Shown piece by piece: positions 13,828 through 50,788 of a stretch of DNA of 64,000 nt. Under the pieces are notes generated by a model. That model worked only from the letters and a program-made list of their open reading frames with translations. It was not told where the DNA came from and searched no databases. The stretch is taken from positions 128,001-192,000 of the forward strand of contig CAWFFN010000009.1 of NCBI GenBank assembly GCA_963815115.1. The letters run 5' to 3'. This DNA is from an uncultured delta proteobacterium. Its GTDB lineage: Bacteria; Desulfobacterota; Binatia; DP-6. The stretch's first letter is position 1, and each line of letters starts with the position of its first letter. The translations under genes and the position numbers were made by a program.

Positions 13828-14949
13828 CTACAGGCGGGCGAGCATCTCCTGCTCGATGCCGGCGATCTCGCGGCGCAGCGACTCGACCGTCTGGGTGGGA
13901 CGTCCACCCCGGCGCGCCGCGGCGAGGATGTCGTCGACCTTGTCGAGGACGGTGCGCAGCTTGGTGTGCGCCTCGAGCGCGGCCCGGTTGCGCAGGCGCG
14001 GCTCGTCCCACTCCCGGAGCGCGTAGTCCCGTAGCTCGCGCGACTGGTAGAGGAGCACCCGCACCTCGTCCTCGTAGCCGTGAAGGAGCTCGCGGATCAC
14101 CTCGCGCACGGTCTGGCGCTCGGCCGGGTCGCGCCACAGGACGTGCTCCAGGAAGGCGACGTCGCGGTCGCCGACGCCGTCGCGACCGTCCAGCCACGCA
14201 TGCGCCCGCAGCACGCCGATCGACTGCGCCCAGCGCCGGTCGGAGGCCACGACCGCGCGCCGGCCGAGCTCGCGTCGCAGATCGGCGACCGCGCGCAGCA
14301 CCTCGCCCGGCACCGTCACCGCCGCCACCCCGGCGCGCGCGTCCTCGAGGTCCGCGAGCGACAGCGTCGTGCGGGCCGCCGGCGGCTGGGCCTGGAGGAG
14401 CTTCAGGAAGCGGAAGTCCTCGCCCAGGTAGTCGACCACGAAGCGCAGCAGGAAACGGTCGTTCAGGGCGAGCAGCTCGTCGTCCTCGGGCAGCTCGTTG
14501 GACGCCCCGAAGAGCGTGAGGAGGGGAACGGGCGTGACTTCGCGCCCGTTGTGGAAGCGGCGCTCGTGCATCAGCGTGAGGACGGTGTTCAGGATCGACG
14601 AGCTGGCCTTGAACACCTCGTCGAGGAACGCGATGTGCGCCTCGGGCAGCTTGTGGGTGGTGAGGCGCCGGTAGTCGTCGGCCTCGAGCGCCTTCAGGCT
14701 GATGGCGCCGAACAGCTCCTCGGGCGTGGTGAAGCGGGTCAGCAGCCACTGGAAGTAGCGCGCACCGGTGATGCGCCGGCACACCTCGTCCGCGAGCATC
14801 GACTTGGCGGTGCCCGGCGGCCCGATGACGAGCACGTGCTGTCCCGCGAGGAGGCCGATCAGGGCGCCGTCGATCAGCTCGGCGCGCTCGAGGAAGAGCT
14901 GGCGCAGCTCGTCCCGGATGGTGCGCAGCAGGTCCCGCGGTGCCGACAC
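13828..14949 (-). CDS. MoxR/RavA-type AAA+ ATPase
   Basis: Walker A GPPGTAKS, LLTRFTTPEELFG, Walker B FLDEVFKA, ASNELP and DRF. Confidence 0.9.
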   Translation of the reverse strand: MSAPRDLLRTIRDELRQLFLERAELIDGALIGLLAGQHVLVIGPPGTAKSMLADEVCRRITGARYFQWLLTRFTTPEELFGAISLKALEADDYRRLTTHKLPEAHIAFLDEVFKASSSILNTVLTLMHERRFHNGREVTPVPLLTLFGASNELPEDDELLALNDRFLLRFVVDYLGEDFRFLKLLQAQPPAARTTLSLADLEDARAGVAAVTVPGEVLRAVADLRRELGRRAVVASDRRWAQSIGVLRAHAWLDGRDGVGDRDVAFLEHVLWRDPAERQTVREVIRELLHGYEDEVRVLLYQSRELRDYALREWDEPRLRNRAALEAHTKLRTVLDKVDDILAAARRGGRPTQTVESLRREIAGIEQEMLARL

Positions 14950-15016
14950 CTGGCGAGGATAGGGCCCGTCGCTCCGGGCCGCAACCCGCGCGACCCGCTC
15001 GGTCACCCTGTTGCAT

Positions 15017-15040
15017 TCACGTAACCAGTCGGTTACGTGA
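15017..15040. promoter_or_regulatory. Perfect palindromic operator, probable ArsR autorepression site
   Basis: TCACGTAACC-AGTC-GGTTACGTGA ending 6 bp before the ArsR ATG; TTGCAT -35-like hexamer at 15011. Confidence 0.75.
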
Positions 15041-15046
15041 CGCGAC

Positions 15047-15388
15047 ATGGCAGCCAGGGCGAACGTCGCGCTCGACCGCACCTTCGCGGCTCTCGCGGAT
15101 CCGACTCGGCGCATGCTGATCGAGCGCATCGGCCGCAAGCCGCACCGGGCCGGCGACCTGTGCCGGGGGCTGTCGATCTCGCGACCGGCCGTGTCGAAGC
15201 ACCTGCGCGTCCTGCGCGACGCCGGCCTCGTCGCCTCGGACGCGCGCGGTCGTGAGATGGTCTACCGGCTGTCGCCGGCGTCGCCCGGCATGGTGGCGGC
15301 GCGCGCGTACGTGGACCGCGTGAGCCGGCTCTGGGACGACGCGCTGGCGGCCTTCAAAGCGTTCGCGGAGCAGGAGGAACGGGAATGA
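15047..15388 (+). CDS. ArsR/SmtB family transcriptional regulator
   Basis: FAALADPTRR and ISRPAVSKHLRVLRDAGLV wHTH. Confidence 0.92.
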   Translation: MAARANVALDRTFAALADPTRRMLIERIGRKPHRAGDLCRGLSISRPAVSKHLRVLRDAGLVASDARGREMVYRLSPASPGMVAARAYVDRVSRLWDDALAAFKAFAEQEERE

Positions 15389-16472: not shown

Positions 16473-16711
16473 AGGCTCGGCGGTCGCGCGACCGTCCCTT
16501 CAGTCGCTCATGAGCTGCATGCTGGCCGCGACGCCCGGAGCTGGAGCTCGCGAACCTCGCCTCCCAGCATCCGCCGCTCTCGCGCTGGAGCTGCGTCGTG
16601 GCCGGCAGTGAAAACCCGCCGGGTGCCGGCGGAGCGTCGGGTGGCTCGCCGCCAAGTGGAGTAGCGGCGGGCGGTTGTGAGGCGACGGACGGTCGGATAG
16701 ATCGTCCCACC

Positions 16712-16966
16712 ATGAGCGCCAAGAGCAAGGTGTCCGTGACGGTCGACCGGGAGCTGCTCCGGGAGGCCGCCCGGCTCGGTGAAGGCATGACCCGAAGCCA
16801 GCTCTTCGAGCACGCGCTTGCCGCGTGGGTGCGTCGCCAAGGTCGCGCGGAACTCGATCAGGCCATCGCACGTTACTACACCTCCTTGACGGCAGCCGAG
16901 CGGCGCGAGGACGACGACTGGGCCGCGCTGGGGGACGACACGGTCTCCCGGAGCTGGGACAGGTGA
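16712..16966 (+). CDS. Ribbon-helix-helix antitoxin (MazE/CopG-like)
   Basis: KVSVTVDRELL...TRSQLFEHAL, acidic C-terminus; overlaps the toxin start (GTGA). Confidence 0.75.
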   Translation: MSAKSKVSVTVDRELLREAARLGEGMTRSQLFEHALAAWVRRQGRAELDQAIARYYTSLTAAERREDDDWAALGDDTVSRSWDR

Positions 16967-17319
16967 GCGATCTCATCGCTTCTCCCCGCCGCGGCTTCCT
17001 GTACTGGGTCCGGATACCCGACGAGCCCGGCGGTAAGCGACGGCCGGCGCTCGTGGTGTCACCGGACGTTCGCAACCGTCTCGCCAACGACGTCATCGTG
17101 GTGCCGGTCTCGACCGTGCTCCGCGAAGCGCCCACCCACGTCCGCATGCGAGCGCGAGAGGGTGGACTTCCGCGGCCCTCGGTTGCCAAATGTGAGCAGG
17201 TCACCACCATCCGTCGCGATCGCCTCGTGCCCACGGCGCTCGGGGGAGCCGTGTCGCTCATGCGCATGGTCGAGGTCGAGAAGGCGATCCTCCGGGCGAT
17301 CGGCGTGCCGGTGTCGTGA
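16963..17319 (+). CDS. PemK/MazF family toxin (endoribonuclease)
   Basis: RRG..YWV...KRRPALVVSPD..N, VIVVPVST and SVAKCEQVTTI. Confidence 0.9.
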   Translation: MSDLIASPRRGFLYWVRIPDEPGGKRRPALVVSPDVRNRLANDVIVVPVSTVLREAPTHVRMRAREGGLPRPSVAKCEQVTTIRRDRLVPTALGGAVSLMRMVEVEKAILRAIGVPVS

Positions 17320-24222: not shown

Positions 24223-25005
24223 ATGCGCTGGCTCGCCCGGGGCACCGGGCTCGTCCTCCTGATGGCGATCGTGCCCGCCTGCACCCCCGCGCGCTACGTC
24301 GTCGAGCGCCCGGGGCTGGATTGCGAGCGTGCCGTGCGCGTCGCGCGCCGGACCCTCGTCGACATGGGCTACACGATCACCGACATGGTCCAGCCGAAGG
24401 GCGGGACGTCCGGCTTCGTCACCGGCACGAAGCGGACGCCGGACGGACAGACCGCGAAGGGATCCGCGAGCATCAGGTGCTCGGCGACCGGGGCGGAGGT
24501 CCGACCGATCGAGGGTTCGCTCCTGTCGGGCTTCGAGTTCAGCCGACGCTTCGACTACGGCTTCACGTCCCTCGTGCAGCGTCCCGACGTCGAGACGCCG
24601 CGGGTCGAATCCGGCGTCCAGGTGCTGGTGCAGGTGGTGGACGTCTACCAGTCCCGGCTCGATCTCGGGGGCGAGGCCGTCCGCGGCGGCAACGTCCTCA
24701 TCCGCCTCACCGTGCGCAACGGCACCGATCGCGCCGTGGCCGTCGCCAAGGAACGGCTGACCCTGGTCACGGCCGACGGAACGTCGGCCCAGGCCCTCGG
24801 CGGCCCGGCGCTGGACGCGGCGTTCGCCGCCGGCCCGGCCGCCGATCGGGTGCGCCACGAGCTGCTCGGGAAGCTCGAGGTGGCGGCGCGCACCACGTCG
24901 TTCCGCTTCCTGGTGTATCCTTCCGGCGTCTACCGCGAGGCGCGCATCGCGGTCGAGGACGTCGAGACCGGTGAGAGCGACGGCTTCGTGACGGCCGTGG
25001 AGTGA
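24223..25005 (+). CDS. Hypothetical lipoprotein
   Basis: Signal peptide ending IVPAC; GC-biased codon usage. Confidence 0.65.
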   Translation: MRWLARGTGLVLLMAIVPACTPARYVVERPGLDCERAVRVARRTLVDMGYTITDMVQPKGGTSGFVTGTKRTPDGQTAKGSASIRCSATGAEVRPIEGSLLSGFEFSRRFDYGFTSLVQRPDVETPRVESGVQVLVQVVDVYQSRLDLGGEAVRGGNVLIRLTVRNGTDRAVAVAKERLTLVTADGTSAQALGGPALDAAFAAGPAADRVRHELLGKLEVAARTTSFRFLVYPSGVYREARIAVEDVETGESDGFVTAVE

Positions 25006-25006
25006 T

Positions 25007-25342
25007 TCACTCGGGCGTCAGGCGGAGACCAGCCGCTTCGAATCGCCTGAAGTCGGCCCTGTTGGAAGTCGCGAGCGCGGCTCCCGCTCGGATGGCCACG
25101 GCGGCGATCATGCAGTCGGTCAGGGTGCCGCGACGTCGACCGGTCAGGTTGCAAAGTCGGGCGGTTGTCGCGGCATCCTCTGCAAGAAACGGGTCCGGGT
25201 CCTGCACGACCCGAGCGGCGAGCTGGAGCAAGGCGCCGTCGACTGGACCGCAAAGGAACTCGGCCCAGCCCACCGCACTGACGCCGACCGCCTGCTCATC
25301 GTGTAGCGCGCGAATGAGGAAGCTGGTGTCGAGATGGATCAC
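25007..25342 (-). CDS. PIN domain (VapC-like) toxin
   Basis: IHLDTSFLI, AEFLCG, DCMIAAVA and LATSNRADF acidic tetrad. Confidence 0.85.
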   Translation of the reverse strand: MIHLDTSFLIRALHDEQAVGVSAVGWAEFLCGPVDGALLQLAARVVQDPDPFLAEDAATTARLCNLTGRRRGTLTDCMIAAVAIRAGAALATSNRADFRRFEAAGLRLTPE

Positions 25343-25623
25343 CGCGCGCGCTGCTCGCGACGCGCGGAGGCCGTCCGCCGCTCTCGGCGAACATCGCCGG
25401 CCCAGGCACGTGCGCGTGCAGAGGTCAGGTCGAGCGCTCGCTGAAGTGCCTCCAGCGCCGAGAGGGCGTCGGGTCGCTCAGACGCGGCACCCTCCGCCGC
25501 TACACGGATCGCGCGGCGAAGCGCCTCCGACTTCGACACCCTCCACCGGCGCGCCATTCGCTCCAGCGTGCGCACCGTGTCGACGTCAAGGGCATAGGTG
25601 GCCTTGATGCTCGGGGTGGCCAT
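25339..25623 (-). CDS. Ribbon-helix-helix (CopG/VapB-like) antitoxin
   Basis: KATYALD...LERMARRWRVSKSEALRRAI; overlaps the toxin start. Confidence 0.8.
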   Translation of the reverse strand: MATPSIKATYALDVDTVRTLERMARRWRVSKSEALRRAIRVAAEGAASERPDALSALEALQRALDLTSARARAWAGDVRRERRTASARREQRAR

Positions 25624-25641
25624 ACTCCCAGAGTATGGCCA
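25617..25641. promoter_or_regulatory. Perfect 11-bp inverted repeat over the antitoxin start codon (TA operator)
   Basis: TGGCCATACTC-CCA-GAGTATGGCCA. Confidence 0.65.
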
Positions 25642-25747
25642 TACCCACAGAAGCTCGGCAAGCGGCGAGCCGAATTCCCTGGCCGTGGGGCGCGCGATGC
25701 GCTGCGTCGGATGACCTTCGTGCGCTGGTGTGCTAGGCACCACCGCG

Positions 25748-26723
25748 ATGCGGGTGGCGGCGGGCTGGCGGCAGGACGCGGACGTCTCCCTGTACCAGGG
25801 AGACACGCTCGATCTGCTGCGCGAGCTGCCGGACGAGTCGGCCCAGCTCGTGATCACGTCGCCTCCCTACAACCTCGCCAAGGCGTACGAGCGCGGCCGG
25901 CGCCTGGCGCTCGACGAGTACCTGGCCGCACAGGCGCAGGTCATCGAGCAGTGCGTTCGCATCCTGCGTCGCGGTGGCAGCATCTGCTGGCAGGTCGGCA
26001 ACCACGTGACCGCGGACGAGATCGTTCCGCTCGACGTGATGCTCTACCCGCTCTTCAAGCGGCACCCCGATCTCCTGCTGCGCAACCGCGTGATCTGGCA
26101 CTTCGAGCACGGCCTGCACTGCACCAGGCGCCTCTCCGGCCGGTACGAGGTGATCCTCTGGTTCACCAGAGGCCCGGAGTACCGCTTCGACGTCGACCCG
26201 ATTCGGGTGCCCCAGAAGTATCCCGGCAAGCGCGCGTGGAAGGGTCCGACGCGCCGGCGAGTACACCGGCAACCCGCGCGGGAAGAATCCCGGCGACGTG
26301 TGGATCTTCCCCAACGTCAAGGCGAACCACGTCGAGAAGACCATCCACCCCTGCCAATTCCCCATCGAGCTGGTGGAGCGCTTCGTGCTCGCGACCACCG
26401 TTCCGGGCGATCTCGTGGTCGATCCCTACATGGGCGTCGGGACGACCGCCTGTGCCGCGGTGCTGAACGGCCGCCGCGCCGCCGGCGCGGAGATCGTCCC
26501 GCAGTACGTCGCGATCGCCCGCGAGCGGCTCGCGATGGCGGCGGCCGGACGTCTGGGAACGCGCCCCATGACACGGCCCGTTCACCAGCCGGATCCCCGC
26601 TCGGCACTGACGCGGCGTGACGAGTCCAGCGGTACGCGCAGCGGACGCATACGCCCGCGGCCCCGGGCGCAAGGGCTGCGGATCGTCGCGCGCGCCGCGG
26701 CCAGCGAGCCGCCGGCGGGCTGA
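25748..26723 (+). CDS. Site-specific DNA methyltransferase (N4-C/N6-A, beta class); frameshift near 26250
   Basis: Motif IV TSPPYN precedes HPCQFP and motif I VDPYMGVGTT. Confidence 0.88.
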
Positions 26724-26743
26724 CGGGCCGGCCAGAGTCGCCG

Positions 26744-26765
26744 ATGCCATATTGTAGTATGGCAT
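26744..26765. promoter_or_regulatory. Inverted repeat upstream of the second vapBC (TA operator/promoter)
   Basis: ATGCCATA-TTGTAG-TATGGCAT in an AT-rich patch containing a TAGTAT -10-like hexamer. Confidence 0.6.
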
Positions 26766-26786
26766 TACGGCTGGTAGATTGGATGG

Positions 26787-26993
26787 ATGGGCGCGGCGCG
26801 GAAGATCACGGTCCAGCTTCCGGCCGACCTGCTCGCGAAAGCGCAGCGGTCGAGCGGCCAGAACCTGACGGCCACGATTCGCCGTGGGCTCGAGCTGGTG
26901 GCGGCCGGGGGCGCCTACGACCAGCTGCGGGGCATGCGGGGCAGGGTCTCGTTCTCGATCGACTGGCGCAAGCTTCGCGAAGATCGGCGATGA
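26787..26993 (+). CDS. Antitoxin (VapB-like)
   Basis: 68 aa, KITVQLPADLL..., ends LREDRR; ATGA overlap with the PIN gene. Confidence 0.75.
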   Translation: MGAARKITVQLPADLLAKAQRSSGQNLTATIRRGLELVAAGGAYDQLRGMRGRVSFSIDWRKLREDRR

Positions 26994-27385
26994 TCGCCGT
27001 CGACACGAGCTCCTGGATCGCCTTCCTCGGAGGTGCGACCGGCGACGATGCCGACCTCGTGGCCCAGGCGCTGGCGGACCGCCAGGTGTGTCTCCCTCCC
27101 GTCGTGCTGACGGAGCTCCTGAGCGACCCGAGGCTCCCGGAGCGCGTGGCGGACATGCTGGCACAGCTGCCGCGGCTCGAGGTGCTCGAGGGGTACTGGG
27201 AGCGAGCGGGCTCCCTGCGAGCCAAGGTCCTCGGCTCGAGGCGTCGAGCACGGCTGGCCGACACCCTGATCGCGCAGAGCTGCCTCGATCACGACGTGGC
27301 TCTCGTGACACGAGACGACGACTTCTGGCACTTCACGCGGGCCGGAGGGTTGCGACTGTTCGGGGCCCGGCGCCGCGCCTCTTGA
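26990..27385 (+). CDS. PIN domain (VapC-like) toxin
   Basis: IAVDTSSWI, VLTELLS, ADTLIAQ and LVTRDDDF. Confidence 0.88.
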   Translation: MIAVDTSSWIAFLGGATGDDADLVAQALADRQVCLPPVVLTELLSDPRLPERVADMLAQLPRLEVLEGYWERAGSLRAKVLGSRRRARLADTLIAQSCLDHDVALVTRDDDFWHFTRAGGLRLFGARRRAS

Positions 27386-27400
27386 TCTGCCAAACCTTCC

Positions 27401-29539
27401 TCACCGGCAGACGTTCGATTCCATCGACCGCAGGCGCGCCGCCAGCGCGTCGCCTCCGGCCGTGTTCGAGCGCCCGCGCGAGGAGCGCAGAAGCTGGCAC
27501 GCGTCGTCGCGGCGGCCGTCGCTGGCGAGCAGCGTGACCTGCTCGATCCGGGCTTCGTACCAGGCGGTGCCACCGGGTGCGCTGCCCTCGACGACGCGCC
27601 GCCAGTAGCCGAGTGCTCCCGCCGTGTCGCCCGCCGCAGAGGCGGCCCGGGCGGCGCCGCGCAGCGCCTCGGCGGAGGCGTCGTTCCTTGCCAGCACCTG
27701 GTCGTATTGCTTGCGAGCGCCCGCGGGATTGCCCGCGGCCAGCATCAGATCGGCGAGCTGGATGCTGTCGCGCTCGTCGCCTCCGTCGCGTACCAGGACG
27801 GCGTAGGTCTTTTGTGCCAGGGTGACCGCCTGCTGGCGAGCGGCGGGGTCGCCCTGCCGCGCGCGATCGGCGAGCTCGCGGCCGAGGCGCGCGAGCGTCT
27901 TCCGACGGTCCGGATCGGCCGGCGTGGCGAGGTAGGTGTCGAGATCGTGCCCCGCGTCGTCGAACTGCCCGAGCGCGACCCGGGCCTGGAGCCTGAGCTC
28001 GACCACACGCGGGAAGAGATCGCGCGCCGCCGGATACTTCTGCTCGAAGCCGGAGAGCAGCGCCACGGTCGTCTCCCGGTCCGGCGGCGTGGTGCTCGCC
28101 GCGACGAGCGCTCCCATGAGGGCCGCCCGGGCCGCCATCGGCGCATCGTCGCCCTTCGCCGGCGTTGCGGCGACGAAGGCGCGCAGATCCTTCGCCAGGG
28201 CGGTGCGGTCGTCGGCGGAGGTCTTGTCGGAAAGGGTGCCGGCGCGGCACTCGAGCACGCCGAAGCGGGCTCGTGACGCGTAGGCGCCCGGGGGCACCTT
28301 GGCGAGCTCCGTCGACGCCTTCGTGCAGTCGCCGCGGCTCCGGTAGAGGTCGCCCAGGAGGTACCGTGCCTCGGCCACGCCGTCCGCCTTGGGATAGCGC
28401 GTCAGGTAGGTGGTGAGCGCCTCTTCGAATGCACCGTCGGCGGCGCCGCCATGCGACGGCTCCGCCGCGCGCGCCACGTCGAGCGCGCGGAAGCGCAGAT
28501 AGGCGCTTTCCGGCGCGCGCGGCGAGTCGGGGAAGTCTCGTACGAGCTCGCCCAGCACAGGCGCCGCCTCCGCCTGCTTCTTGGCGTTCAGCAGACACCC
28601 GCCCGCGAGGAAGAGCAGCTCGGGCCGCCAGCGCGCACGGCCCGGGTCCTTCACCGTGGCACCGGCGGTCGCCAGCGCCGGCACGTCCGCGCAGCGACCG
28701 CGGTCGACGGCGAGCTGGCCGAGGAGGAAGAGGCCGTAGCTCGAGCGCACGCCCGCCGGCGTGCCGTCACCCAGCTTCTGCGTGATCACGCCCTGCACGC
28801 GCGCCGGCCAGTCGCCGCCCCGCGCAGCGAGCCCGCGGGCCAGCTCGGTGATCTCCTTGTCGGCGCCCGGCTTCTCGGCGGCGTTCGGCAGCCCGTCGGA
28901 CAGCTTTCCGAGCAGCATGGCGTCGGTGTCCTGCGGCGGGGGCTCGGGCTTGCCGCTCTCCCTGCGCTCGAGCTCGGCGAGCGCCACCTTCGCCTTGGCC
29001 GCGGTGCGCGATTTCGACGCGGCAGCCTTCAGGTCGTCACGGGCTTTCGCCCAGTTGCCGAGGTCCATGTAGGCGAGCCCGCGCCCGTAGAGGCTCTCGG
29101 CATAGACGTCGGGCGCCTCCTCCATCTCGGCGAACTGCGAGAAGCCGTCGACGGCCTTCGAGAGGAGCGACTTCTTCTGTGCCGCGTCGCTCACCAGCTG
29201 CGCCGCCTGGTAGCGCACCCAGGCGAGATGGTAGGCGACGATGTAGGACTGGACCTCGGGCTCGCGCCAGCGCGGGCTGCGGTAGAGCTCCTGGAGATCG
29301 CCGTCCGCGGTGATGACCTCGTCACGCAGGCGATCGAGCCGGGCGCGCAGCTGCTCCTTCTCGGCCGCGAGATCGCGCTCCAGATCGGGCCACACCGCGG
29401 TCGCGCGCTCGCGATCGCCGCGCTCCAGGAGATCGTAGAAGCTCCGGCTGCGCTGCTCGAGCGACGGCGCGTCCGCCGCCCTTGCCGGCAGCGCGAGCGT
29501 CGCAATCAGCAGGAGCGCGCCGGCCCGCCGGAAGATCAC
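27401..29539 (-). CDS. Exported tetratricopeptide-repeat (TPR) protein
   Basis: Signal peptide (LALPARA); repeated helical TPR-like units (YGRGLAYMDLG, ARYLLGDLY, FPDSPRAPE). Confidence 0.75.
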   Translation of the reverse strand: MIFRRAGALLLIATLALPARAADAPSLEQRSRSFYDLLERGDRERATAVWPDLERDLAAEKEQLRARLDRLRDEVITADGDLQELYRSPRWREPEVQSYIVAYHLAWVRYQAAQLVSDAAQKKSLLSKAVDGFSQFAEMEEAPDVYAESLYGRGLAYMDLGNWAKARDDLKAAASKSRTAAKAKVALAELERRESGKPEPPPQDTDAMLLGKLSDGLPNAAEKPGADKEITELARGLAARGGDWPARVQGVITQKLGDGTPAGVRSSYGLFLLGQLAVDRGRCADVPALATAGATVKDPGRARWRPELLFLAGGCLLNAKKQAEAAPVLGELVRDFPDSPRAPESAYLRFRALDVARAAEPSHGGAADGAFEEALTTYLTRYPKADGVAEARYLLGDLYRSRGDCTKASTELAKVPPGAYASRARFGVLECRAGTLSDKTSADDRTALAKDLRAFVAATPAKGDDAPMAARAALMGALVAASTTPPDRETTVALLSGFEQKYPAARDLFPRVVELRLQARVALGQFDDAGHDLDTYLATPADPDRRKTLARLGRELADRARQGDPAARQQAVTLAQKTYAVLVRDGGDERDSIQLADLMLAAGNPAGARKQYDQVLARNDASAEALRGAARAASAAGDTAGALGYWRRVVEGSAPGGTAWYEARIEQVTLLASDGRRDDACQLLRSSRGRSNTAGGDALAARLRSMESNVCR

Positions 29540-29940
29540 TCCGAGGCCAGGGCGAAGCCGCTCGCACCCGCCTCCTTGGCGAGGCCGAGCACGCGTACCA
29601 CCTCGCCGAGGACCACCTGGCGGTCGCCGGCCAGGATCACGACCTTGTCGTTGGTCTTCGCGAGCGCGTCCTTCAGCACGCTGGCGAGCGCGCCGTCGTC
29701 GCCGGCGACCGGCCGGTCGTTCACGTAGACCTCGTGCGACGGCGTCATGGTCACCATGATGCCCTTCTGCTCCTGCTCCTCGGCGCTCGACTTCGGCAGG
29801 TCGACGTTCTCGGGCTTCATCATGGCCGAGGTGGTGATCATGAAGATGATGAGGAGGACGAGGAAGACGTCGGTCAGCGGAGTGACGTTGATCTCCGCCA
29901 TGATGCCGCGCTTGCGCGACGTCGCGGTGCTAAGCGCCAT
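29536..29940 (-). CDS. ExbD/TolR family biopolymer transport protein
   Basis: EINVTPLTDVFLVLLIIFMIT with the conserved Asp. Confidence 0.93.
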   Translation of the reverse strand: MALSTATSRKRGIMAEINVTPLTDVFLVLLIIFMITTSAMMKPENVDLPKSSAEEQEQKGIMVTMTPSHEVYVNDRPVAGDDGALASVLKDALAKTNDKVVILAGDRQVVLGEVVRVLGLAKEAGASGFALASE

Positions 29941-30580
29941 GCACCCTCCGGCCGGCGGTCAGCGCTTCGAGCACCCGGCTGCTGCCGATGCGGAGCGCGG
30001 CGTCGATGCGCTCCACGCGCGACTGGAAGTAGTTGTAGAACACGACCGCGACGATGCCGACCGCGAGGCCGAGCGCGGTGGCGATGAGCGCCTCCGATAT
30101 GCCGCTGGCGACGACCGCGAAGCCGCCCGTGCCCGCCAGCGCGATGGCGTGGAAGGCGCGGATGATGCCGAGCACGGTGCCGAACAGCCCGATGAACGGC
30201 GCCGAGGAGCCGATGGTGCCGAGCACCCACAGGTTCGATCCGGCGCCCTGCACCTCCTCGAAGTTGCGCTCGGTGGCGACCCGCTCGAGCTCGGGCATGG
30301 GCAGGCCGCGCTCCTTCTCGATCAAGTCCGCGAAGACCCGTCGTGCGGGACAGGCGCGATGCTTGCGCACGACCTCGAGGGCGCCCTGCCAGTCGCCGTG
30401 CGCGAGCACCGGGACGACGTCGCGGGTGAGCCGGGCGGTCGACCGCACGATGCCGCGCAGGCTCCAGGCGCGCTCGAGGACGATGCCGAGCAGGATGACC
30501 GAGCATGCCAGCAGGGGATAGGTGGAGATCGCTCCCTGCCGGATGAGGGCCACGAGGTCGAGGGTGTTGGTGTTGTCCAT
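29930..30580 (-). CDS. MotA/TolQ/ExbB proton channel family protein
   Basis: APFIGLFGTVLGII and GISEALIATALGL. Confidence 0.94.
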   Translation of the reverse strand: MDNTNTLDLVALIRQGAISTYPLLACSVILLGIVLERAWSLRGIVRSTARLTRDVVPVLAHGDWQGALEVVRKHRACPARRVFADLIEKERGLPMPELERVATERNFEEVQGAGSNLWVLGTIGSSAPFIGLFGTVLGIIRAFHAIALAGTGGFAVVASGISEALIATALGLAVGIVAVVFYNYFQSRVERIDAALRIGSSRVLEALTAGRRVHGA

Positions 30581-30599
30581 GGTTGCTCCTTGCGAGTCC

Positions 30600-31865
30600 T
30601 TATCGGTTGCGGGCGACGCGCGAAACGTCCTTCTCCCACTGCGGGCCGAAGGCCTGCACCAGGAGGTACCGCACCATGGCCTGATCCTGCCCGAGGGCGA
30701 TCGCCTGACCGCCGCCCATCCGCGAGATGTCGGCGAAGCTGTCCTGGAGCTGCTTGTAGAAGTCCGGCAGCGGGGAGACCTCTTTCAGCTCGTCGCCGTA
30801 GAGCCAGCGGTGCAGCTTGCGCTCGTGCTCCTCGTGGAGGCGGAGGCTCACGTCGATCGTGCTCACCACCCCGCCCCGCGCGTGCCACTCGCTCACCAGG
30901 TTGCGGATCGCCGGGATGTCCTTCTCGTGCGGTGGGGAGCTCCCGACGAGGATGATCACCTTCTTCGCGTCATCGCGCCATTTCAGCTGATGTATCGCGG
31001 CGTCGAGACCGTCCTTGACCGCTTCCTCCCAGTCACCGCCGCCCTCGGCGACGATGCCGTCGAGGAAGTTCTTCACCTTGCCGCTGGTGAAGGTGAGATC
31101 GGTCCACTTGACGACGTAGGGCTCGCTCTGGCGCGGCGCCGTGGCGACGTTGTCGTCGTCGCGATCACGGTAGGCGACGGCACCGATGCGCGCCCCCGGC
31201 ACCAGGCGCTGCATGGTGAAGACGAGGTCGTCCAGCCGGCGCTTCAGGTCGTCGATGACGTTCTGCATGCTGCCGGTGGCGTCGACCACGATCGCCACGT
31301 CGAGGCCGACCTTGCGCAGGCTGCCGACGTACTTGCCGAAGGCGCTGTCGAGCGAGATGCCGAGGCTGGCCAGCCCGATGCCGTTGCCGCCGCCGCCGCC
31401 GGTCCCGAGGCCCCCGGCGCCGGCGCCCGCGGACGCGAAGCGCGCACCGAGGTCGGTACCGGCTCCGATCGGCCGCACGGGGCGGGCGAACTGCACGACG
31501 GGGCTGGTGGCAACCGCCTTCGGCTTCGCAGCCTGAGGCATCACGACCGCTTCCGGCGTACGCGCGACGAGGAGATCCTTCACCTCGTCATCGCGTTTCG
31601 GATCCTGCGGGCGCACCGGCTGCGGCAGGTCCGTCAACGAGAAGATCTGGCGGCGCTTCTGCTGGCCGAGCCCCGCGCCACCGCCCGAGCCCATGCCGAA
31701 GCCGGGCCCGACGCCGAGACCGAAGCCGCCGCCGATGCCCGCCACGTCGAAGATGATCAGGAGCAGCAGGAGGACGTGGAGGAGCACGGACGCACCCATC
31801 GCGAGGCCGAGACGACCTGGGCGGGAGCGTGCGGTGCCATCGAGGAGAAGATCCGGAGAGGACAT
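30600..31865 (-). CDS. Membrane-anchored VWA domain protein with TonB/TolA-like N-terminal helix
   Basis: TM SVLLHVLLLLLIIF; Gly/Pro-rich linker; VDATGSM MIDAS, GGGDWEE and VGSSPPH. Confidence 0.8.
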   Translation of the reverse strand: MSSPDLLLDGTARSRPGRLGLAMGASVLLHVLLLLLIIFDVAGIGGGFGLGVGPGFGMGSGGGAGLGQQKRRQIFSLTDLPQPVRPQDPKRDDEVKDLLVARTPEAVVMPQAAKPKAVATSPVVQFARPVRPIGAGTDLGARFASAGAGAGGLGTGGGGGNGIGLASLGISLDSAFGKYVGSLRKVGLDVAIVVDATGSMQNVIDDLKRRLDDLVFTMQRLVPGARIGAVAYRDRDDDNVATAPRQSEPYVVKWTDLTFTSGKVKNFLDGIVAEGGGDWEEAVKDGLDAAIHQLKWRDDAKKVIILVGSSPPHEKDIPAIRNLVSEWHARGGVVSTIDVSLRLHEEHERKLHRWLYGDELKEVSPLPDFYKQLQDSFADISRMGGGQAIALGQDQAMVRYLLVQAFGPQWEKDVSRVARNR

Positions 31866-31885
31866 GAAACGGAAGGCGATCTAAG

Positions 31886-31914
31886 GACTTACGGGTGGGG
31901 TATCAACCTGTCAA
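31886..31914 (-). promoter_or_regulatory. Putative sigma70-type promoter of the VWA-exbB-exbD-TPR operon
   Basis: Perfect TTGACA, 17-bp spacer, weak -10 TAAGTC on the minus strand. Confidence 0.4.
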
Positions 31915-31936
31915 GGCAACCGGGTGTCGCATGTGA

Positions 31937-32704
31937 CTACCAGCGCAGCCGGGTGCGCAGGGCGCGCGCCTGCGTCCGGCTCACGGCCACCTCGCTGCTG
32001 GCGTGATCGCGCATGACGAGCTTGTAGCGACCGCCAAACCAGGGGACGATCTCCCGCACGTGGCGCAGGTTCACGAGGCTCGCCTTGTGGACCCGGAAGA
32101 ACGACTCCGGGTCGAGGCGCTCCTCGAGATCGCGCAGCGTGTAGTTCGTCATGTGGGCGCGCTCGCCGGTGTGGGCGTAGACCAGCCGGTGCTCGACCCC
32201 GAACCAGCGCACGTCCTCGACGGGGAGCAAGAGGATGCGCTTCCCGCTGTAGGCGGAGATGCGCGTGGCGTACGTCTTCCGGCTCTGCTCGAGCCGCTGC
32301 AGAACCGCCTCGACGTCCAACCCCGGACCGCCCGTCGACAGGCGCGCGCGTACGCGACCGACCGCCTCCTCGACCCGGGCGCGGGCGAAGGGCTTCAGCA
32401 GGTAGTCGAGGGCATGCACCTCGAAGGCGCGGATGGCGTACTCGTCGAAGGCGGTCGCGAAGACGATCTGCGGAGCGGGACCGCGCAGCGCCCGCAGCAC
32501 CTCGAACCCGTCCATGCCGGGCATCTGCACGTCGAGGAAGACGAGGTCGGGCCGCTGCTCCTCGATCATCCGGACCGCTTCGACGCCGTCCTGGGCCTCT
32601 CCCACCAGCTCCACGCCACCGAGCCGCGCGAGGAACGTTCTCAACCGATCGCGTGCGAGCTTCTCGTCGTCGACGACGAGCGTCCGGATGCCGCTGCTCG
32701 TCAA
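31937..32704 (-). CDS. LytTR family response regulator
   Basis: VVDDEKLAR, FLDVQMPG, DYLLKP and FFRVHKASLVN; TTG start overlapping the kinase stop. Confidence 0.92.
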   Translation of the reverse strand: MTSSGIRTLVVDDEKLARDRLRTFLARLGGVELVGEAQDGVEAVRMIEEQRPDLVFLDVQMPGMDGFEVLRALRGPAPQIVFATAFDEYAIRAFEVHALDYLLKPFARARVEEAVGRVRARLSTGGPGLDVEAVLQRLEQSRKTYATRISAYSGKRILLLPVEDVRWFGVEHRLVYAHTGERAHMTNYTLRDLEERLDPESFFRVHKASLVNLRHVREIVPWFGGRYKLVMRDHASSEVAVSRTQARALRTRLRW

Positions 32705-33801
32705 GCGGCCTCCTGCACCGGGAGCCGCAAGCGTACGACGGTGCCGCGTCCAGGGCTGCTCCGGATCTCGGGCAGGTGATCGGTGCCATAGAGGCGCTCG
32801 AGCCGCGCCCGCAAGTTGCGCAGGCCGACGCCGCGCGCATAGACCTCCGCGAGCACCGGCTCCGCCATGCCGAGGCCGTCGTCGCCGACCGTCAGCGTGA
32901 GGATATCGCCGTCCACTCGCGCGTCGATCGACACCGTGCCGACGCCGAGCTTGCGCGACAGCCCGTGCTTGACGGCGTTCTCCACCAGCGGCTGCAGGAT
33001 GAGGTTCGGGATGAGCTGGCGCAGGCTGCGCGGATCGACGCGGGTCTCCACGCGCAGGCGCTCGTCGAAGCGGGCGCGCTCGATGTCGAGATAGGCGCGC
33101 GTCATCTGGAGCTCCTCGGCGAGCGGCACGAACTCCTGCTCGGAGCGGTGGAGGATGTAGCGGAAGATCTCGGCGAGGCGCTCGACACAGGCCTCGGCCT
33201 TCTCGGGGTCGGCGTGGATGAGCTGGGCGATCGAGTTGAGGCTGTTGAAGAGGAAGTGCGGATTGATCTGCGCCCGCAGGGCGGCCAGCTGCGCGGTGGC
33301 GGCGAGCTCGCTGAGCTCCCGCTCGCGCGTCTGCAACGCCTGCACGTGGCGCCAGACCAGGTGGTAGCCGATCAGCGCCATCAGCCCCACCGGCACGATG
33401 GGAAGGAGCGCGTACAGACGCACGATGCCCTGGCGCATGGCGGGGGTGATCGTGAGGTGGACGTCGTCGCCGGTCGGCGTGCCGAACAATCCGATGCCGC
33501 TCCGACCGTGCCAGGTGGTCGCCCACACGACGACCGCGGACACGACGGCGAAGACGAGCGCCGCCACCACCGCCTGCCGCACCAGCTGACTGGCGAAGGA
33601 GCGGCCCCCGAGAGCCGGGAACACCCAGCGCCAGAGCGCATAGGTGACGCCTCCGAACACCGTGCTGGCCAGAGTGAAGACGATGGGTGCCGTCCACGAT
33701 TGCCAGAGAACCAGGTGCACCAGCCCGAGGTGCAGGCCGGTCGCGGCGCCCGTCCCGAGGACGAGCAGCACCATCCGGTTGCGACGGGTCGACTGCGGCA
33801 T
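32701..33801 (-). CDS. LytS/YehU family sensor histidine kinase
   Basis: Several N-terminal TM helices; LRAQINPHFLFNSLN, QPLVENAVKHG, DDGLG and GVGLRN; start could be 33825. Confidence 0.92.
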   Translation of the reverse strand: MPQSTRRNRMVLLVLGTGAATGLHLGLVHLVLWQSWTAPIVFTLASTVFGGVTYALWRWVFPALGGRSFASQLVRQAVVAALVFAVVSAVVVWATTWHGRSGIGLFGTPTGDDVHLTITPAMRQGIVRLYALLPIVPVGLMALIGYHLVWRHVQALQTRERELSELAATAQLAALRAQINPHFLFNSLNSIAQLIHADPEKAEACVERLAEIFRYILHRSEQEFVPLAEELQMTRAYLDIERARFDERLRVETRVDPRSLRQLIPNLILQPLVENAVKHGLSRKLGVGTVSIDARVDGDILTLTVGDDGLGMAEPVLAEVYARGVGLRNLRARLERLYGTDHLPEIRSSPGRGTVVRLRLPVQEAA

Positions 33802-39526: not shown

Positions 39527-40870
39527 TCAGAGCAGCGAGCCGCGCAGGATCACGCTCGCCACCGTGAAGTAGATCACGATGCCGGTGACGTCGACCAGCG
39601 TGGCGACGAACGGCGCCGAGGCGCTGGCCGGGTCGAAGCCGAGTCGGCGCAGCAGCAACGGAAGCATCGAGCCCGCCATGGTGCCGAACATGACGACGCC
39701 GATCAGGCTGCCCGCCACCGTGCAGGCGATCAGGAAGTAGTGCTCGCCGTAGAGGTTGAAGAGGCACTGCCAGCTCAGGATGCGGACGAACCCGAGCGTG
39801 GCGAGGATGAGCCCGAGCGCGAGGCCGGCCATGAACTCGCGCCGGATGACGCGCCACCAGTCGCGCAGCTTGAGCTCGCCCGAGGGCGATCGCGCGCATC
39901 ACCAGCGTGGACGCCTGGGAGCCCGAGTTGCCGCCGCTGCTGATGATGAGCGGGCACGAAGAGGGCCAGGACCACGGCGCGGGCGATCTCCTTCTCGAAG
40001 ACCGCCATGGCGCTGGCGGTGAGCATCTCGCCCAGGAAGAGGACGGACAGCCAGCCGGCCCGCTTCTGCATCATGCGCCCCGAACCCGATGCTCAGATAG
40101 GGCGCGTCGAGGGCCTCCATGCCGCCGAGCTTCTGGATGTCCTCGGTCGCCTCCTCCTGCACGACGTCGACGATGTCGTCGACGGTGACGATGCCCTTCA
40201 CCCGGCCCTCCGCGTCGACCACGGGCATGGCCAGGAAGTTGTGCTCGGCGAACAGCTTGCTCACCGCTTCCTGGTCCATGTCTTCGGGAACCGTGACCAC
40301 CTTCGTGCTCATCACGTCGCGCACGCGCTTCTCGGGCGGCGCGGAGAAGAGATCGCGGAACGACACCACGCCGAGGAGGTGCTGCTCGGCGTCGAGGACG
40401 TAGACGTAGTAGACGGTCTCGCAGGCCGCTCGCGCGTCTGCCGGCGCAGGTAGCTGATCGCCTCGTCGACGCTCATGTCGGGGCGCAGCCGCGCGTAGCG
40501 CGGGTTCATCAGGCCGCCGGCCTCGTCCTCGGCGTAGGCGAGGAGCGCCACCACCTCCTTGCGGGTCGGCTCGTCGAGCAGCGCCAGCAGCGCCGTCGCG
40601 CTCCTCGGCGGCCGCCTCCTGGACCACGTCGGCCGCGTCGTCCGGCGGCAGGAAGCGCATCAACGAGCGGCGGGTGGCGGGAGGCGCGGCCAGCAGCATC
40701 TCGGCCTGGTCGTGCGCGTGCATGCCGAGAAAGAGCGTCTCGGTCTCGGCGTGCGTGAGGAGGGCGAGGCCTTCCAGCCGCTCGTCCGTCGACAGCACCG
40801 GCCAGGCCTCGCGCAGCTCGATTCCGGTGAGCCCGGCCTCGCCCGCTCGCTCCTCGGCGGGAGCCGACAT
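39527..40870 (-). CDS. mgtE: Magnesium transporter MgtE; several frameshifts
   Basis: PDDAAD, AGGLM, CBS pair, [17 protein letters not shown] and [18 protein letters not shown] across frames. Confidence 0.9.
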
Positions 40871-41069
40871 GACGCGCTGAACCTCCTCCTGCCCCCGGGG
40901 CCGGGGCGGACGGAGCCGCGTCCGTGCCAGGGGCGATCTACGCGATGTGAGGACGGCTTTGGCCGTCGCTTCCCATATCTCTCAAAGTTCCTAGCGCAAG
41001 TCCCCAGTCGCGTCCAGCCATGCGTCCCCGTTTGAACGCCCCGGCGGCCGGCGCTATTGCTTGCGGCAT

Positions 41070-46506: not shown

Positions 46507-46723
46507 CCCCTTTTTTCCTCTCCTCACTGACCCGATTGAGGCACGCGGTGCGGGCACTTCCGGGCACCTTGCCCGGGCTATCGATCATCCTGACCGAACG
46601 GTAAGCGACGTGCTTAGCGAACCCGACACGGAGGCGCAAGGGAGACGTCACGGTGACGTTGTCTCGCTGACTCAAACGTTGGCTTGCACCGGCGCCTCGG
46701 CCGTCGCATAACCGGCTCGTCGC

Positions 46724-48364: not shown

Positions 48365-48864
48365 GCGCGCCGCTGCCCGCGGTCCCCTTCGTCGATCGTC
48401 TCTTTGCCGCCGGCTTCGACTTCTTCACCGGTGTGCCCTGCTCCCTCGTCGCGCCCGTGATCGCCGAGCTCGAACGGCGCGGGAGCTACCTGGGCGACAC
48501 GCGCGAGGACGCGGCGCTCGGCGTCGCCGCCGGCGCGTACCTCGCCGGCCGGCTTCCCGTGGTGATCATGCAGAACTCGGGTCTCGGGGTGTCGCTCAAC
48601 GCACTCGGGTCGCTGCATCTGCTCTACGAGCTCCCGGTGCTGCTGCTCGTCACCTGGCGGGGCTTCGAGGGCCGGGACGCTCCCGAGCACCTGGTCATGG
48701 GCGGGGTGCTGACCGGCGTGCTCGATCTCTTCGAGATCCCCCATCGCGCTCCGGATGCGTCCACGCTGCTCGCCGACGTCGACTGGGCGGCGGCCACGCT
48801 CCGGGCGACCCGCAAGCCCGCGGCGCTCATCGTGAAGCCGGGGCTCTTCGCCGAGCACCACTGA
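48343..48864 (+). CDS. Phosphonopyruvate/sulfopyruvate decarboxylase, alpha (N-terminal TPP) subunit
   Basis: FFTGVPCSL, REDAALG, MQNSGLG and WRG...APEH; start uncertain. Confidence 0.85.
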   Translation: MGRGDALSAPLPAVPFVDRLFAAGFDFFTGVPCSLVAPVIAELERRGSYLGDTREDAALGVAAGAYLAGRLPVVIMQNSGLGVSLNALGSLHLLYELPVLLLVTWRGFEGRDAPEHLVMGGVLTGVLDLFEIPHRAPDASTLLADVDWAAATLRATRKPAALIVKPGLFAEHH

Positions 48865-48865
48865 C

Positions 48866-49432: not shown

Positions 49433-49441
49433 GCCGGAAGC

Positions 49442-50743: not shown

Positions 50744-50788
50744 CGGCACCAGCCGGATCGGAGACAAGGCTGCGCCGGAGGACCCGCC

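Follow-up and report, generated by a model that had tools for sequence, protein, structure and literature searches.

Four adjacent genes on the minus strand of the 64,000-nucleotide stretch of DNA analysed here (the window) probably encode a PMF-driven, TonB/TolA-type machine that carries an integrin β-like VWA domain where the C-terminal domain usual for that type would stand, a reading to which we assign a probability of about 65%. The first-pass annotation had offered this arrangement as a candidate new machine. Motor-linked VWA machines were, however, first proposed on paper in 2025, when Williams-Jones et al. (Mol Biol Evol 2025, PMC12204202) published this class together with the same inference; text passages of their paper describe 'vWA force transducers' of the same anatomy encoded beside tolQ, tolR and TPR genes. 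The window locus is a new member of that class, placed there by shared anatomy and synteny. The architecture and linkage first described for it stand, its novelty does not, and its promoter comes down to a possible −35 element.

By the list of open reading frames and Pfam, the unit consists of a VWA transducer gene (30600–31865, 421 amino acids), an ExbB/TolQ-like gene (29930–30580, 216 amino acids), an ExbD/TolR-like gene (29536–29940, 134 amino acids) and a TPR gene (27401–29539, 712 amino acids), all on the minus strand and in the order VWA–ExbB–ExbD–TPR. Successive genes are separated by a 19-nt gap, an 11-nt overlap and a 4-nt overlap, coordinates that agree with the tight coupling noted at first sight, and the four look co-transcribed. 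The TTGACA promoter proposed for them is present only as a lone −35-like hexamer (31909–31914, minus strand, by sequence reading), 43 nt upstream of the VWA start codon; no acceptable −10 hexamer lies downstream of it at 16–18 nt spacing, and a consensus promoter scan of 27000–32300 returned no promoter-like sites. The response-regulator gene upstream ends just 71 nt before the VWA start codon. Pfam identifies it as a LytTR response regulator, paired with a His_kinase-type (LytS-like) sensor (31937–33790, approximate boundaries, minus strand). This pair lies directly upstream of the unit in 18 of 20 Binatia-type loci with enough flank and is absent from the other clades; the two proteins are possible regulators of the unit. 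The surrounding region is conserved and housekeeping in character, near cell-wall genes that encode Ddl and a D-Ala-D-Ala carboxypeptidase with a SPOR domain.

Pfam assigns the first protein to the VWA family (25.7 bits against a cut-off of 23.8, E = 1.5e-5), with further matches to VWA_4 and VWA_2, and its 340 close homologues are all named merely 'vWA domain-containing' or 'hypothetical'. A hydropathy scan found a single segment reaching membrane-helix hydropathy, at the N terminus, and together with the AF2 model (block pLDDT 83–90) it places a transmembrane helix at residues 16–42 (31740–31820, minus strand). Inside this helix lies S26-V-L-L-H30 (S26 at 31788–31790, H30 at 31776–31778), a TonB/TolA-type motor-docking motif whose serine and histidine occur without exception in 19 close relatives and in a set of 35 relatives at identities down to 33%, so the conservation on which the first-pass annotation had wanted its proposal checked is borne out. 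Conservation of the four-residue SHLS motif does not extend to its leucine and second serine: residue 37 is variable and residue 41 is Val. Searching the N-terminal 80 residues against the PDB by sequence returned Gly-rich linkers and no TonB or TolA chain, and the likeness to TonB and TolA therefore rests on the two-residue motif in the helix.

A linker of 127 residues (43–169; 31359–31739, minus strand), delimited by composition and AF2 disorder, joins the helix to the head, with pLDDT below 50 at residues 43–81, 117–131 and 133–169. The spacer at 42–185 contains 33 Gly, 11 Pro and 17 Ala in 144 residues and runs from a conserved Gly-rich stretch (42–67) through K-R-R-Q-I-F-S-L (70–77) and a Pro-rich stretch to a second Gly-rich stretch. 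Across the Binatia-type alignment, R72, S76, L77, D79 and P81 show no or almost no variation. Judged from its sequence, K-R-R-Q-I-F-S-L is a candidate 'motor box'; it is not a strand in the AF2 monomer.

The head occupies residues 170–421 (30603–31358, minus strand; AF2 block pLDDT mostly above 90) and carries the metal-site motif D195-A-T-G-S199 at 31269–31283. Hydropathy, composition, AF2 and Pfam all agree with the description originally given of the protein as an S-x3-H helix, a Gly/Pro-rich spacer and a VWA domain with DATGS. Across 35 relatives, all of which match Pfam VWA, the residues D195, S199, G275-D278, P311, P312 and H313 are invariant, and no TonB_C or TolA family was matched by the window protein or its relatives (35 sequences, Pfam). 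Foldseek ranked integrin β chains first (E = 1e-9; 240–283 aligned columns among the matches listed), with BatB (3ibs) and the B. fragilis aerotolerance protein (4jdu) at ranks 10 and 12 and TM-scores of 0.65–0.66 by target; the head thus resembles the integrin β I-domain best, with BatB close behind, at identities of only 12–18%. A PDB profile search gave a weak match to integrin β-8 (E = 0.0019), with which the motifs V-D-x-[ST]-x-S-M, G-x-x-D-x-x-E and W-R-x-x-A-K align. Apart from its low identity, the head is unlike integrin in having no α-subunit partner and in not conserving the last metal-site Asp. Where unlinked Planctomycetota relatives have Asp as this fifth metal-site residue (L-V-G-D-A-P), Ser or Gly stands here, a difference that may change how the head binds metal.

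The two motor proteins match their Pfam families far above cut-off: the ExbB-like protein, with three hydrophobic segments, scores 104 bits for MotA_ExbB (cut-off 22.9, E = 4.5e-30), and the ExbD-like protein 87 bits for ExbD (cut-off 25.4, E = 1.3e-24). The best-scoring NCBIfam models are TolQ for the former (104.8 bits against a cut-off of 221; ExbB, 91.7 against 206) and TolR for the latter (94.5 against 127), all under their equivalog cut-offs. The Thr-containing G-T-V and A-T-A motifs of the second and third ExbB helices align with solved TolQ, and the membrane Asp24 of ExbD (29869–29871) lines up with its counterpart in the solved chains of ExbD and TolR. As far as these alignments go, the pair keeps the residues that define the MotA/TolQ/ExbB–ExbD proton channel.

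The TPR protein matches several TPR Pfam families, contains six Cys and has a weak match to CpoB/YbgF (57 bits against a cut-off of 90). Its start, MIFRR...ARA-AD, resembles a Sec signal peptide and all orthologues examined start similarly, which suggests that the protein is exported. Nearby, on the plus strand, lies a gene for a lipoprotein of no known family (24223–25005; lipobox ...VPAC), separated from the TPR gene in the window by inserted genes at 25007–27385 and matching nothing in Pfam or PADLOC. In 13 Binatia-type loci, and also in L022 and L026, a homologue of the lipoprotein gene faces the TPR gene in convergent orientation, either immediately following it or with a methylase gene interposed; none is present in L023, L025, L027 or L028. 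Look-alikes in the atlas come from Binatota and Myxococcota. The lipoprotein is a possible accessory or target of the VWA machine.

We compared 29 motor-linked loci (L001–L029) with 51 loci in which a more distant VWA gene stands without motor genes. In the motor-linked set the VWA gene adjoins ExbB in 29 of 29 loci, ExbD in 28 and a TPR gene in 25, the TPR orthologue coming after ExbD in all 25; every missing gene (one ExbD, four TPR) falls beyond a contig end, and the synteny expected of a true unit is thereby upheld. Recurrence in 29 of 29 related loci makes the gene set more than chance. The helix carries S-x3-H in all 29 (27 by an automatic rule, L003 and L012 by eye), compared with one locus among the 51 that lack motor genes when the strict rule is applied and three more under a laxer rule, counts that represent about four deep lineages rather than 29 independent trials because the loci share ancestry. 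The motif is also present in Planctomycetota L031, L032 and L034, which have no motor genes within 8 kb. Linkage within the Binatia-type clade alone says little, since about 15 kb of flank is syntenic there. In the two-ExbD clade the five-gene unit is all that is common to loci with differing flanks, and the gene set is conserved as a unit across very different genomic contexts. The window, every Binatia-type locus and L028 have a single ExbD; L021–L023 and L025–L027 have two (the L024 contig ends within ExbB). Orthologous VWA genes adjoin two very divergent motor lineages, one single-ExbD and one two-ExbD, which makes chance adjacency hard to sustain. L028 reads ExbB–ExbD–VWA–TPR, an order like that of tolQ–tolR–tolA, with VWA in the tolA position.

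With the vWA force transducers described in passages of PMC12204202, the window protein shares a helix with the Ser and His of SHLS, a linker of roughly 100 residues that is disordered or rich in Pro, a vWA fold at the C terminus, and tolQ/tolR-like motor genes and an uncharacterized TPR gene nearby. According to the same passages, AF3 complexes place the transducer His against the motor, and PVC-group loci read TPR–tolQ–tolR–tolR–vWA with two different tolR genes, unlike the VWA–ExbB–ExbD–TPR order, one ExbD and different motor lineage of the window. Two tolR genes are not strictly defining, as the paper says 'often'. The conserved Gly-rich stretch after the helix also sets the window family apart from the transducers described there, and the window's own lineage, that of Binatia-type MAGs, goes unmentioned in the paper's text passages and supplement, the latter giving no hits for 'Binatia' or 'Myxococc'. 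The resemblance to the Myxococcus Agl–Glt gliding machinery is an analogy only. As portrayed in passages of PMC11761067, that system likewise runs on a TolQR-like motor and includes a VWA domain and single-helix transducers predicted to contact TPR proteins of the periplasm, but it comprises at least 17 proteins compared with four here. Its transducers GltG and GltJ, which end in TonB-C-terminal-like domains, are predicted to bind GltD, a TPR protein of the periplasm, and its VWA adhesin CglB is a separate surface lipoprotein, not a transducer (PMC11761067, same passages).

With TonB–ExbB–ExbD the unit shares motor families, a Ser-x3-His anchor, a long flexible spacer and, in L028, the exbB–exbD–transducer order. 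It differs in having no TonB_C in 35 relatives, no nearby receptor, and ExbB and ExbD below NCBIfam cut-offs. A Pfam scan of 100 window ORFs (49 + 51) found no TonB-dependent receptor, TolB, Pal/OmpA or TonB_C, in keeping with the first-pass statement that the window holds no receptor, tolB or pal; membership of the TonB family was rejected on the missing TonB_C match and receptor. Nor are orthologues always tied to a canonical TonB plus receptor, which would have counted against the proposal: 46 flank ORFs of six other loci contained no TonB_C, receptor, TolB or Pal. The TolQ–TolR–TolA/CpoB system shares with the unit the best motor scores, a short TolQ-like ExbB of 216 amino acids and a TPR gene at the unit's end that parallels cpoB, to which the weak match noted above also points, although the window TPR protein is far larger than CpoB. 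Membership of TolA/Tol–Pal was likewise rejected: there is no TolA family match, TolA domain III, or TolB or Pal/OmpA domain in the window, and TolQ and TolR score under cut-off. PADLOC matched none of the four unit proteins or the lipoprotein, and an anti-phage defence system with MotAB-like parts, such as Zorya, was set aside.

Bat operons pair membrane VWA proteins with TPR proteins and encode the former with a MoxR-type ATPase and a DUF58 protein, and in known bacteria tonB is often unlinked to exbBD. The exbB and exbD genes could accordingly serve a canonical TonB or TolA elsewhere while the VWA and TPR proteins belong to a Bat-like membrane complex of their own that is merely encoded in the same operon, and the place of BatB among the best structural matches and the motif-bearing relatives without nearby motor genes are consistent with this. 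We consider it unlikely. The unit has no MoxR or DUF58 gene next to it (the window's sole MoxR-like gene sits with CoA-transferase genes some 15 kb off), and it was on this ground, despite the similar fold, that Bat operon membership was rejected; the protein has an anchor with the motor-docking motif instead. The near-restriction of Ser-x3-His to motor-linked anchors, the conservation of only the VWA–motor–TPR unit where flanks differ, the tolA position held in L028 and the two very different motor lineages beside orthologous VWA genes all argue against a merely shared operon. It is highly improbable that the VWA domain is instead cytoplasmic and membrane-anchored, with no role across the periplasm. 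Such a topology would suit the K-R-R cluster (70–72) that follows the helix and Gly-rich stretch on the supposed periplasmic side, the net charge of just +1 on the N-terminal 18 residues, and the mild hydrophobicity of residues 42–67 (mean hydropathy 0.73). That stretch, however, is missing in the two-ExbD and other sister clades and disordered in AF2, and one segment only reaches membrane-helix hydropathy. The strongly basic N termini of sister clades, the zinc-ribbon-like C-x2-C...C-x2-C extensions ahead of the helix in some relatives (P0231, P0255 and P0266) and the exported-looking TPR partner suggest a cytoplasmic N terminus and a non-cytoplasmic head.

Two further explanations accept a coupled motor and assign it other work. 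In one, which we regard as quite unlikely, the motor moves a VWA adhesin or carrier in the manner of Agl–Glt, with TPR proteins relaying force to the outer membrane; the parallel with GltG/GltJ, GltD and CglB (passages of PMC11761067), the zinc-ribbon-like motif that some relatives share with GltJ, and a gliding role also suggested in passages of PMC12204202 speak for it. The 100 window ORFs, however, include no glt-like outer-membrane barrel, CglB-like β-propeller or other gliding gene, a VWA domain on a 127-residue inner-membrane tether has no evident route to the cell surface, and the housekeeping setting beside Ddl and the SPOR-domain carboxypeptidase does not point to gliding. Very unlikely is the idea that the head replaces the TonB C-terminal domain and opens a different outer-membrane transporter through an acidic residue rather than a TonB box. 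The anatomy does match TonB point for point, and in L023 a gene for the ferrous-iron transporter FeoB lies directly upstream, but in that locus only; no outer-membrane transporter gene is linked to the unit in the window or six other loci, and the constant partner is a soluble TPR protein, as CpoB is in Tol–Pal, not a barrel.

In the favoured reading, a TonB/TolA-type machine with a VWA head, an ExbB pentamer and ExbD dimer (a presumed 5:2 ratio) would convert proton flow to movement. The VWA-protein helix would dock outside the ExbB ring through His30 and Ser26, as in TonB and TolA, and past the membrane the K-R-R-Q-I-F-S-L segment may bind the periplasmic domain of ExbD as a 'motor box' does. 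The linker would let the head cross the periplasm, where its metal site could grip an acidic residue of a partner on which the motor can then pull. The likeliest guess is that the apparently exported TPR protein, which is conserved along with the unit, holds or presents an envelope protein that acts as this partner, and the neighbouring lipoprotein is one candidate. Were the partner of this kind, the role would be tethering or remodelling like that of Tol–Pal and not nutrient import.

A bolder version, which we hold to be doubtful, makes the head a true force-gated integrin β-like metal-site adhesion domain that operates within the bacterial envelope and forms a catch bond under load, with the four-gene unit taking on TolA–Pal's outer-membrane tethering in Binatia. 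Its grip on the acidic residue would strengthen as the motor pulls, and either the TPR protein would hold its partner or the conserved lipoprotein nearby would itself be that partner. If this is true, the Ser-x3-His helix would be a portable plug, since orthologous heads sit beside two divergent motor lineages, and any periplasmic domain could be wired through it to any 5:2 motor.

The four genes are successive minus-strand open reading frames (ORFs) in a window of about 71% G+C. They encode a VWA protein (30600–31865; 421 amino acids), an ExbB/TolQ-like protein (29930–30580; 216 amino acids; 104 bits to Pfam MotA_ExbB), an ExbD/TolR-like protein (29536–29940; 134 amino acids; 87 bits to Pfam ExbD) and a multi-TPR protein (27401–29539; 712 amino acids; Pfam TPR families), the VWA match lying just above its Pfam cut-off (25.7 against 23.8 bits). 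In gene order, the first junction is a 19-nt gap and the next two are overlaps of 11 and 4 nt, confirming the tight coupling noted in the first-pass annotation. The TTGACA promoter proposed there was not supported: the hexamer is present (31909–31914, minus strand) but is followed by no reasonable −10 hexamer, and a scan of 27000–32300 returned no promoter-like site. Scanning the same interval for terminators yielded one chance-level site, within the TPR gene, and Rfam gave no match across the whole window, so no riboswitch or leader is evident. Directly upstream of the VWA gene lie genes for a LytS-like sensor of the His_kinase type and a LytTR response regulator (31937–33790, minus strand). 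Because the LytTR gene ends 71 nt upstream of the unit on the same strand, read-through from it is as likely as a separate transcription start.

A hydropathy scan found one membrane-type segment in the VWA protein. An AlphaFold2 model built from an alignment of 35 relatives (mean pLDDT 73.8, pTM 0.60) has a confident helix at residues 16–42, which holds Ser26 and His30 of the TonB/TolA-type S-x3-H motif, as well as a VWA domain that starts near residue 170, extends to the C terminus and has 10-residue blocks mostly above pLDDT 90. Between them, residues 43–81, 117–131 and 133–169 fall below pLDDT 50, and the linker contains 33 Gly and 11 Pro in 144 residues. Two of its Gly-rich stretches (residues 42–67, encoded at 31665–31742, and 145–160) are near-invariant across the Binatia-type clade; such conservation is unusual for a linker, and both stretches are modelled as disordered and are absent from the sister clade with two ExbD genes. 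The possibility that the Gly-rich stretch forms a further transmembrane span was dismissed because of its hydropathy, its absence from sister clades and its low model confidence.

Foldseek comparison with the PDB placed integrin β chains first (E around 1e-9, 240–283 aligned columns among the matches listed), with BatB of Bacteroides thetaiotaomicron (3ibs) ranked 10th and an aerotolerance protein of B. fragilis (4jdu) ranked 12th (TM-scores by target 0.65–0.66). A profile search of the PDB with the close-relative alignment gave no match at E ≤ 0.01; a broader alignment, searched at E ≤ 10, gave weak integrin β matches only, the best to integrin β8 (E = 0.0019). In that weak profile match, the V-D-x-T-x-S-M, G-G-G-D-W-E-E and W-R-x-x-A-K-K motifs of the VWA family align with integrin β8 motifs, and Pfam Integrin_beta matched weakly in 10 of the 35 relatives. 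One metal-site position is Asp in Planctomycetota relatives lacking motor linkage (L-V-G-D-A-P) and Ser or Gly in the window's VWA family, whose metal site is probably present but non-canonical. Residues 1–80 matched only artificial Gly-Ser linkers in the PDB and no TonB or TolA chain, and NCBIfam holds no family for the protein.

For the motor subunits, the nearest NCBIfam models were TolQ (104.8 bits against an equivalog cut-off of 221) and TolR (94.5 against 127), the ExbB and ExbD models scoring lower; since these scores are far below every NCBIfam equivalog cut-off, the motor belongs to the superfamily and to neither named system. Asp24 of the ExbD-like protein falls at the position of the membrane Asp in ExbD and TolR chains of solved structure, and Thr-containing motifs in helices 2 and 3 of the ExbB-like protein align with solved TolQ.

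A word-indexed search found 340 VWA homologues; the 120 listed are 63–100% identical, come mostly from Candidatus Binatia metagenome-assembled genomes and are named no more fully than 'vWA domain-containing protein'. An exhaustive search of 50%-identity representatives recovered 5490 proteins with E ≤ 0.001, of which 87 also passed E ≤ 1e-30. In a plasmid collection, tblastn gave domain-level VWA matches only (27–34% identity) and no full-length relative. A scan limited to a single genome for each species confirmed 164 loci, and 80 of these were retained (L001–L080). In L001–L029, ExbB adjoins the VWA gene in all 29 loci, ExbD is linked in 28 (the contig of L024 ends inside ExbB) and the TPR gene comes next in 25 (the contigs of L001, L010, L021 and L024 end earlier), which bears out the linkage of orthologues to exbB and exbD on which the first-pass annotation had staked its proposal. 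The 21 Binatia-type loci (L001–L020 and L029) have the window's order, VWA-ExbB-ExbD-TPR. L021–L027 (n = 7) encode VWA proteins 41–44% identical to that of the window (six of the seven, measured in alignment A3) and run VWA, a longer ExbB, ExbD, ExbD and TPR as far as their contigs reach. In L028 the order is ExbB-ExbD-VWA-TPR, which is that of tolQ-tolR-tolA. In L030–L080, where matches cover the VWA domain alone at 25–45% identity, none of the 51 loci has ExbB or ExbD genes in flanks of up to 8 kb.

Linkage within the Binatia type alone is weak evidence, because about 15 kb is syntenic there: thiolase, OB-fold protein, sensor kinase, LytTR regulator, the four genes, lipoprotein, DHH protein and Ddl. 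In the two-ExbD clade, the five-gene unit is the sole part common to L023, L025, L027 and the group of L021, L022 and L026, and the flanks differ. The sensor and LytTR genes, a possible regulator of the four-gene unit, are kept upstream in 18 of the 20 Binatia-type loci with enough flank (missing in L015, a remnant in L018).

We then asked how the anchor motif is distributed. Neither Ser26 nor His30 varies among 19 close relatives or among 35 relatives with identities as low as 33%, as expected of the docking pair first proposed from the window alone. A strict test required S-x3-H upstream of the VWA domain, inside a 20-residue window whose mean hydropathy exceeded 1.5; it was passed by 27 of the 29 motor-linked loci compared with 1 of the 51 unlinked ones. 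In both misses (L003 and L012) the motif is present and its helix is slightly less hydrophobic. The single unlinked positive, L030, is uninformative because its upstream flank is only 168 nt. Three unlinked Planctomycetota-type loci (L031, L032 and L034) also carry the motif in a less hydrophobic helix, with no motor genes among their neighbours. As relatives share ancestry, the motif and linkage evidence amounts to about four deep lineages, and across these the Ser/His anchor tracks motor linkage.

Among the best 150 representatives, the strict test was positive in 37 of 66 proteins of 330–480 residues and in 18 of 36 longer ones. The longer proteins have an N-terminal extension before the helix; in them, S-x3-H and the metal-site motif remain about 140 residues apart. 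In three representatives (P0231, P0255 and P0266) a zinc-ribbon-like C-x2-C...C-x2-C precedes the S-x3-H helix, which argues for a cytoplasmic N terminus and a VWA head on the non-cytoplasmic side; this extension recalls the zinc-finger domain of Myxococcus GltJ. A second VWA family, found outside the window in Candidatus Binataceae (P0147, P0152 and P0162), has an extra N-terminal hydrophobic segment and then a G-P-F-P-x-S-I-x-x-H helix, suggesting paralogous transducers in the same phylum.

Quick maximum-likelihood trees were used to compare motor lineages; the VWA tree leaves out L013 and L020, which had less than 80% profile coverage, and the ExbB tree leaves out L019 and L021. Branches of 0.35–0.64 join the clades in the VWA tree. 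In the ExbB tree one branch of about 6.8 substitutions per site, saturated and to be read qualitatively only, parts the two-ExbD clade from the Binatia type and L028. By BLASTP the window's ExbB is 29% identical to that of L023, whereas the VWA proteins of the same pair are 44% identical. From these branches and identities, the heads are orthologous and the motors clearly different, with one ExbD or two.

The TPR protein and all orthologues extracted begin with a Sec-signal-peptide-like segment. The window's protein has six Cys and is most conserved at roughly residues 95–160; the CpoB/YbgF model matches it weakly (57 bits against a cut-off of 90). A Pfam scan of 100 window ORFs (49 main and 51 further ones from uncovered stretches) detected neither a TonB_C domain nor a TonB-dependent receptor, nor any TolB or Pal/OmpA domain, in agreement with the earlier report that receptor, tolB and pal are missing from the window, and none was found in 46 flank ORFs of L021, L022, L023, L026, L027 and L028. 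In two related loci only, L022 (8498–9781) and L026 (6591–7862; both minus in locus orientation), a possibly TolB-like PD40-repeat protein of 423–427 amino acids is encoded some 1.7 kb past the TPR gene. An anti-phage defence system was ruled out, PADLOC giving no match.

A candidate partner of the machine is a lipoprotein of no known family (24223–25005, plus strand; 260 amino acids, lipobox ending at Cys20). In 13 Binatia-type loci, L022 and L026, its homologues are convergent with the TPR gene, either as the very next gene or with one methylase gene intervening; L023, L025, L027 and L028 lack them. The TPR and lipoprotein genes are adjacent in most Binatia-type loci; in the window they are separated by genes inserted at 25007–27385, namely PIN-domain toxin-like ORFs (25007–25342, minus; 26744–27385, plus) and an N6/N4 DNA methylase in two overlapping ORFs (25730–26620 and 26298–26723, plus). 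The methylase also occurs at this site in L002, L013 and L020, and no locus matched the PIN query.

The split methylase, a split MgtE (39527–40981, minus; membrane part 39527–39832, CBS and N-domain 39902–40981) and a split epoxide hydrolase or alpha-beta hydrolase (52814–53314 and 53336–53896, plus) are either pseudogenes or assembly indel errors; splits of a similar kind occur in L013, L019 and L020. Elsewhere in the window, a MoxR-like AAA+ ATPase of the 'MoxR-vWA-beta-propeller' type (13828–15138, minus; bpMoxR, 192 bits) neighbours two CoA-transferase III genes and an ArsR-type regulator, with no VWA or propeller gene, and a weakly matched VapB-like antitoxin precedes a PemK/MazF-type toxin gene (16514–17316, plus). 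A cluster at 45061–63818 encodes a PEP mutase–nucleotidyltransferase fusion (46724–48364), a TPP enzyme fragment, a B12 radical-SAM enzyme, aminotransferases, a CDP-alcohol phosphatidyltransferase, an LPG-synthase-type membrane protein and glycosyltransferases; its gene content suggests a phosphonate-bearing lipid or glycan pathway.

The idea of a VWA-tipped, motor-driven envelope machine is sound, and its novelty did not survive a literature search. For earlier or experimental work, that search, which covered material other than the bioRxiv supplements, turned up a single pertinent publication (Williams-Jones et al., Mol Biol Evol 2025; PMC12204202), which proposes the same class and draws the same inference. 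A VWA-head force-transducer class, the third after TonB and TolA, was thus proposed only in 2025, from genome context and structure prediction alone; in that paper AF3 models set the conserved His of the vWA transducers against the motor, it is stated that no deletion phenotype has been reported, and the carriers named are Proteobacteria, Planctomycetes, Verrucomicrobia, Bacteroidetes and Rhodothermaeota, with Tichowtungia aerotolerans as a cultivable one. Neither 'Binatia' nor 'Myxococc' had a match in one supplement of that paper, and a search for Binatota gave no paper with that word among the matches listed. In the Agl-Glt gliding machine, the transducers GltG and GltJ are TonB-C-terminal-like, and their predicted binding partner is GltD, a periplasmic TPR protein; the VWA domain there is part of CglB, a lipoprotein of the cell surface (PMC11761067).

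Our comparisons establish the parts of the unit, their conserved residues and their conserved association. We put the probability that they form a motor-coupled transducer core at about 0.65. In such a core, an ExbB pentamer and ExbD dimer would conduct protons, and the VWA protein would dock on the ExbB ring through His30 and Ser26. A conserved K-R-R-Q-I-F-S-L segment 30 residues past the helix may engage the ExbD periplasmic domain, the linker would span the periplasm, and the integrin-like head would grip a partner by its metal site and be pulled. Given that core, our best guess, held at somewhat less than even odds, is a Tol-Pal-like tethering or remodelling role at the envelope, because the consistently linked partner is a soluble TPR protein, like CpoB in Tol-Pal, no transporter is linked, and the surrounding region is a housekeeping one, with genes for Ddl and a SPOR-domain D-Ala-D-Ala carboxypeptidase next to the unit.

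To our knowledge, TonB and TolA were long the sole known routes from the inner-membrane proton gradient to mechanical work at the outer membrane. Binatia-type bacteria now join the VWA-head transducer class, of which the window's unit is the simplest form so far, with four genes and a single ExbD, and a practical start for reconstitution. As modelled, the head is closest in fold to integrin β I-domains, textbook force-regulated adhesion modules, and knowing what it grips would tell whether bacteria use integrin-like, force-dependent adhesion within their own envelope.
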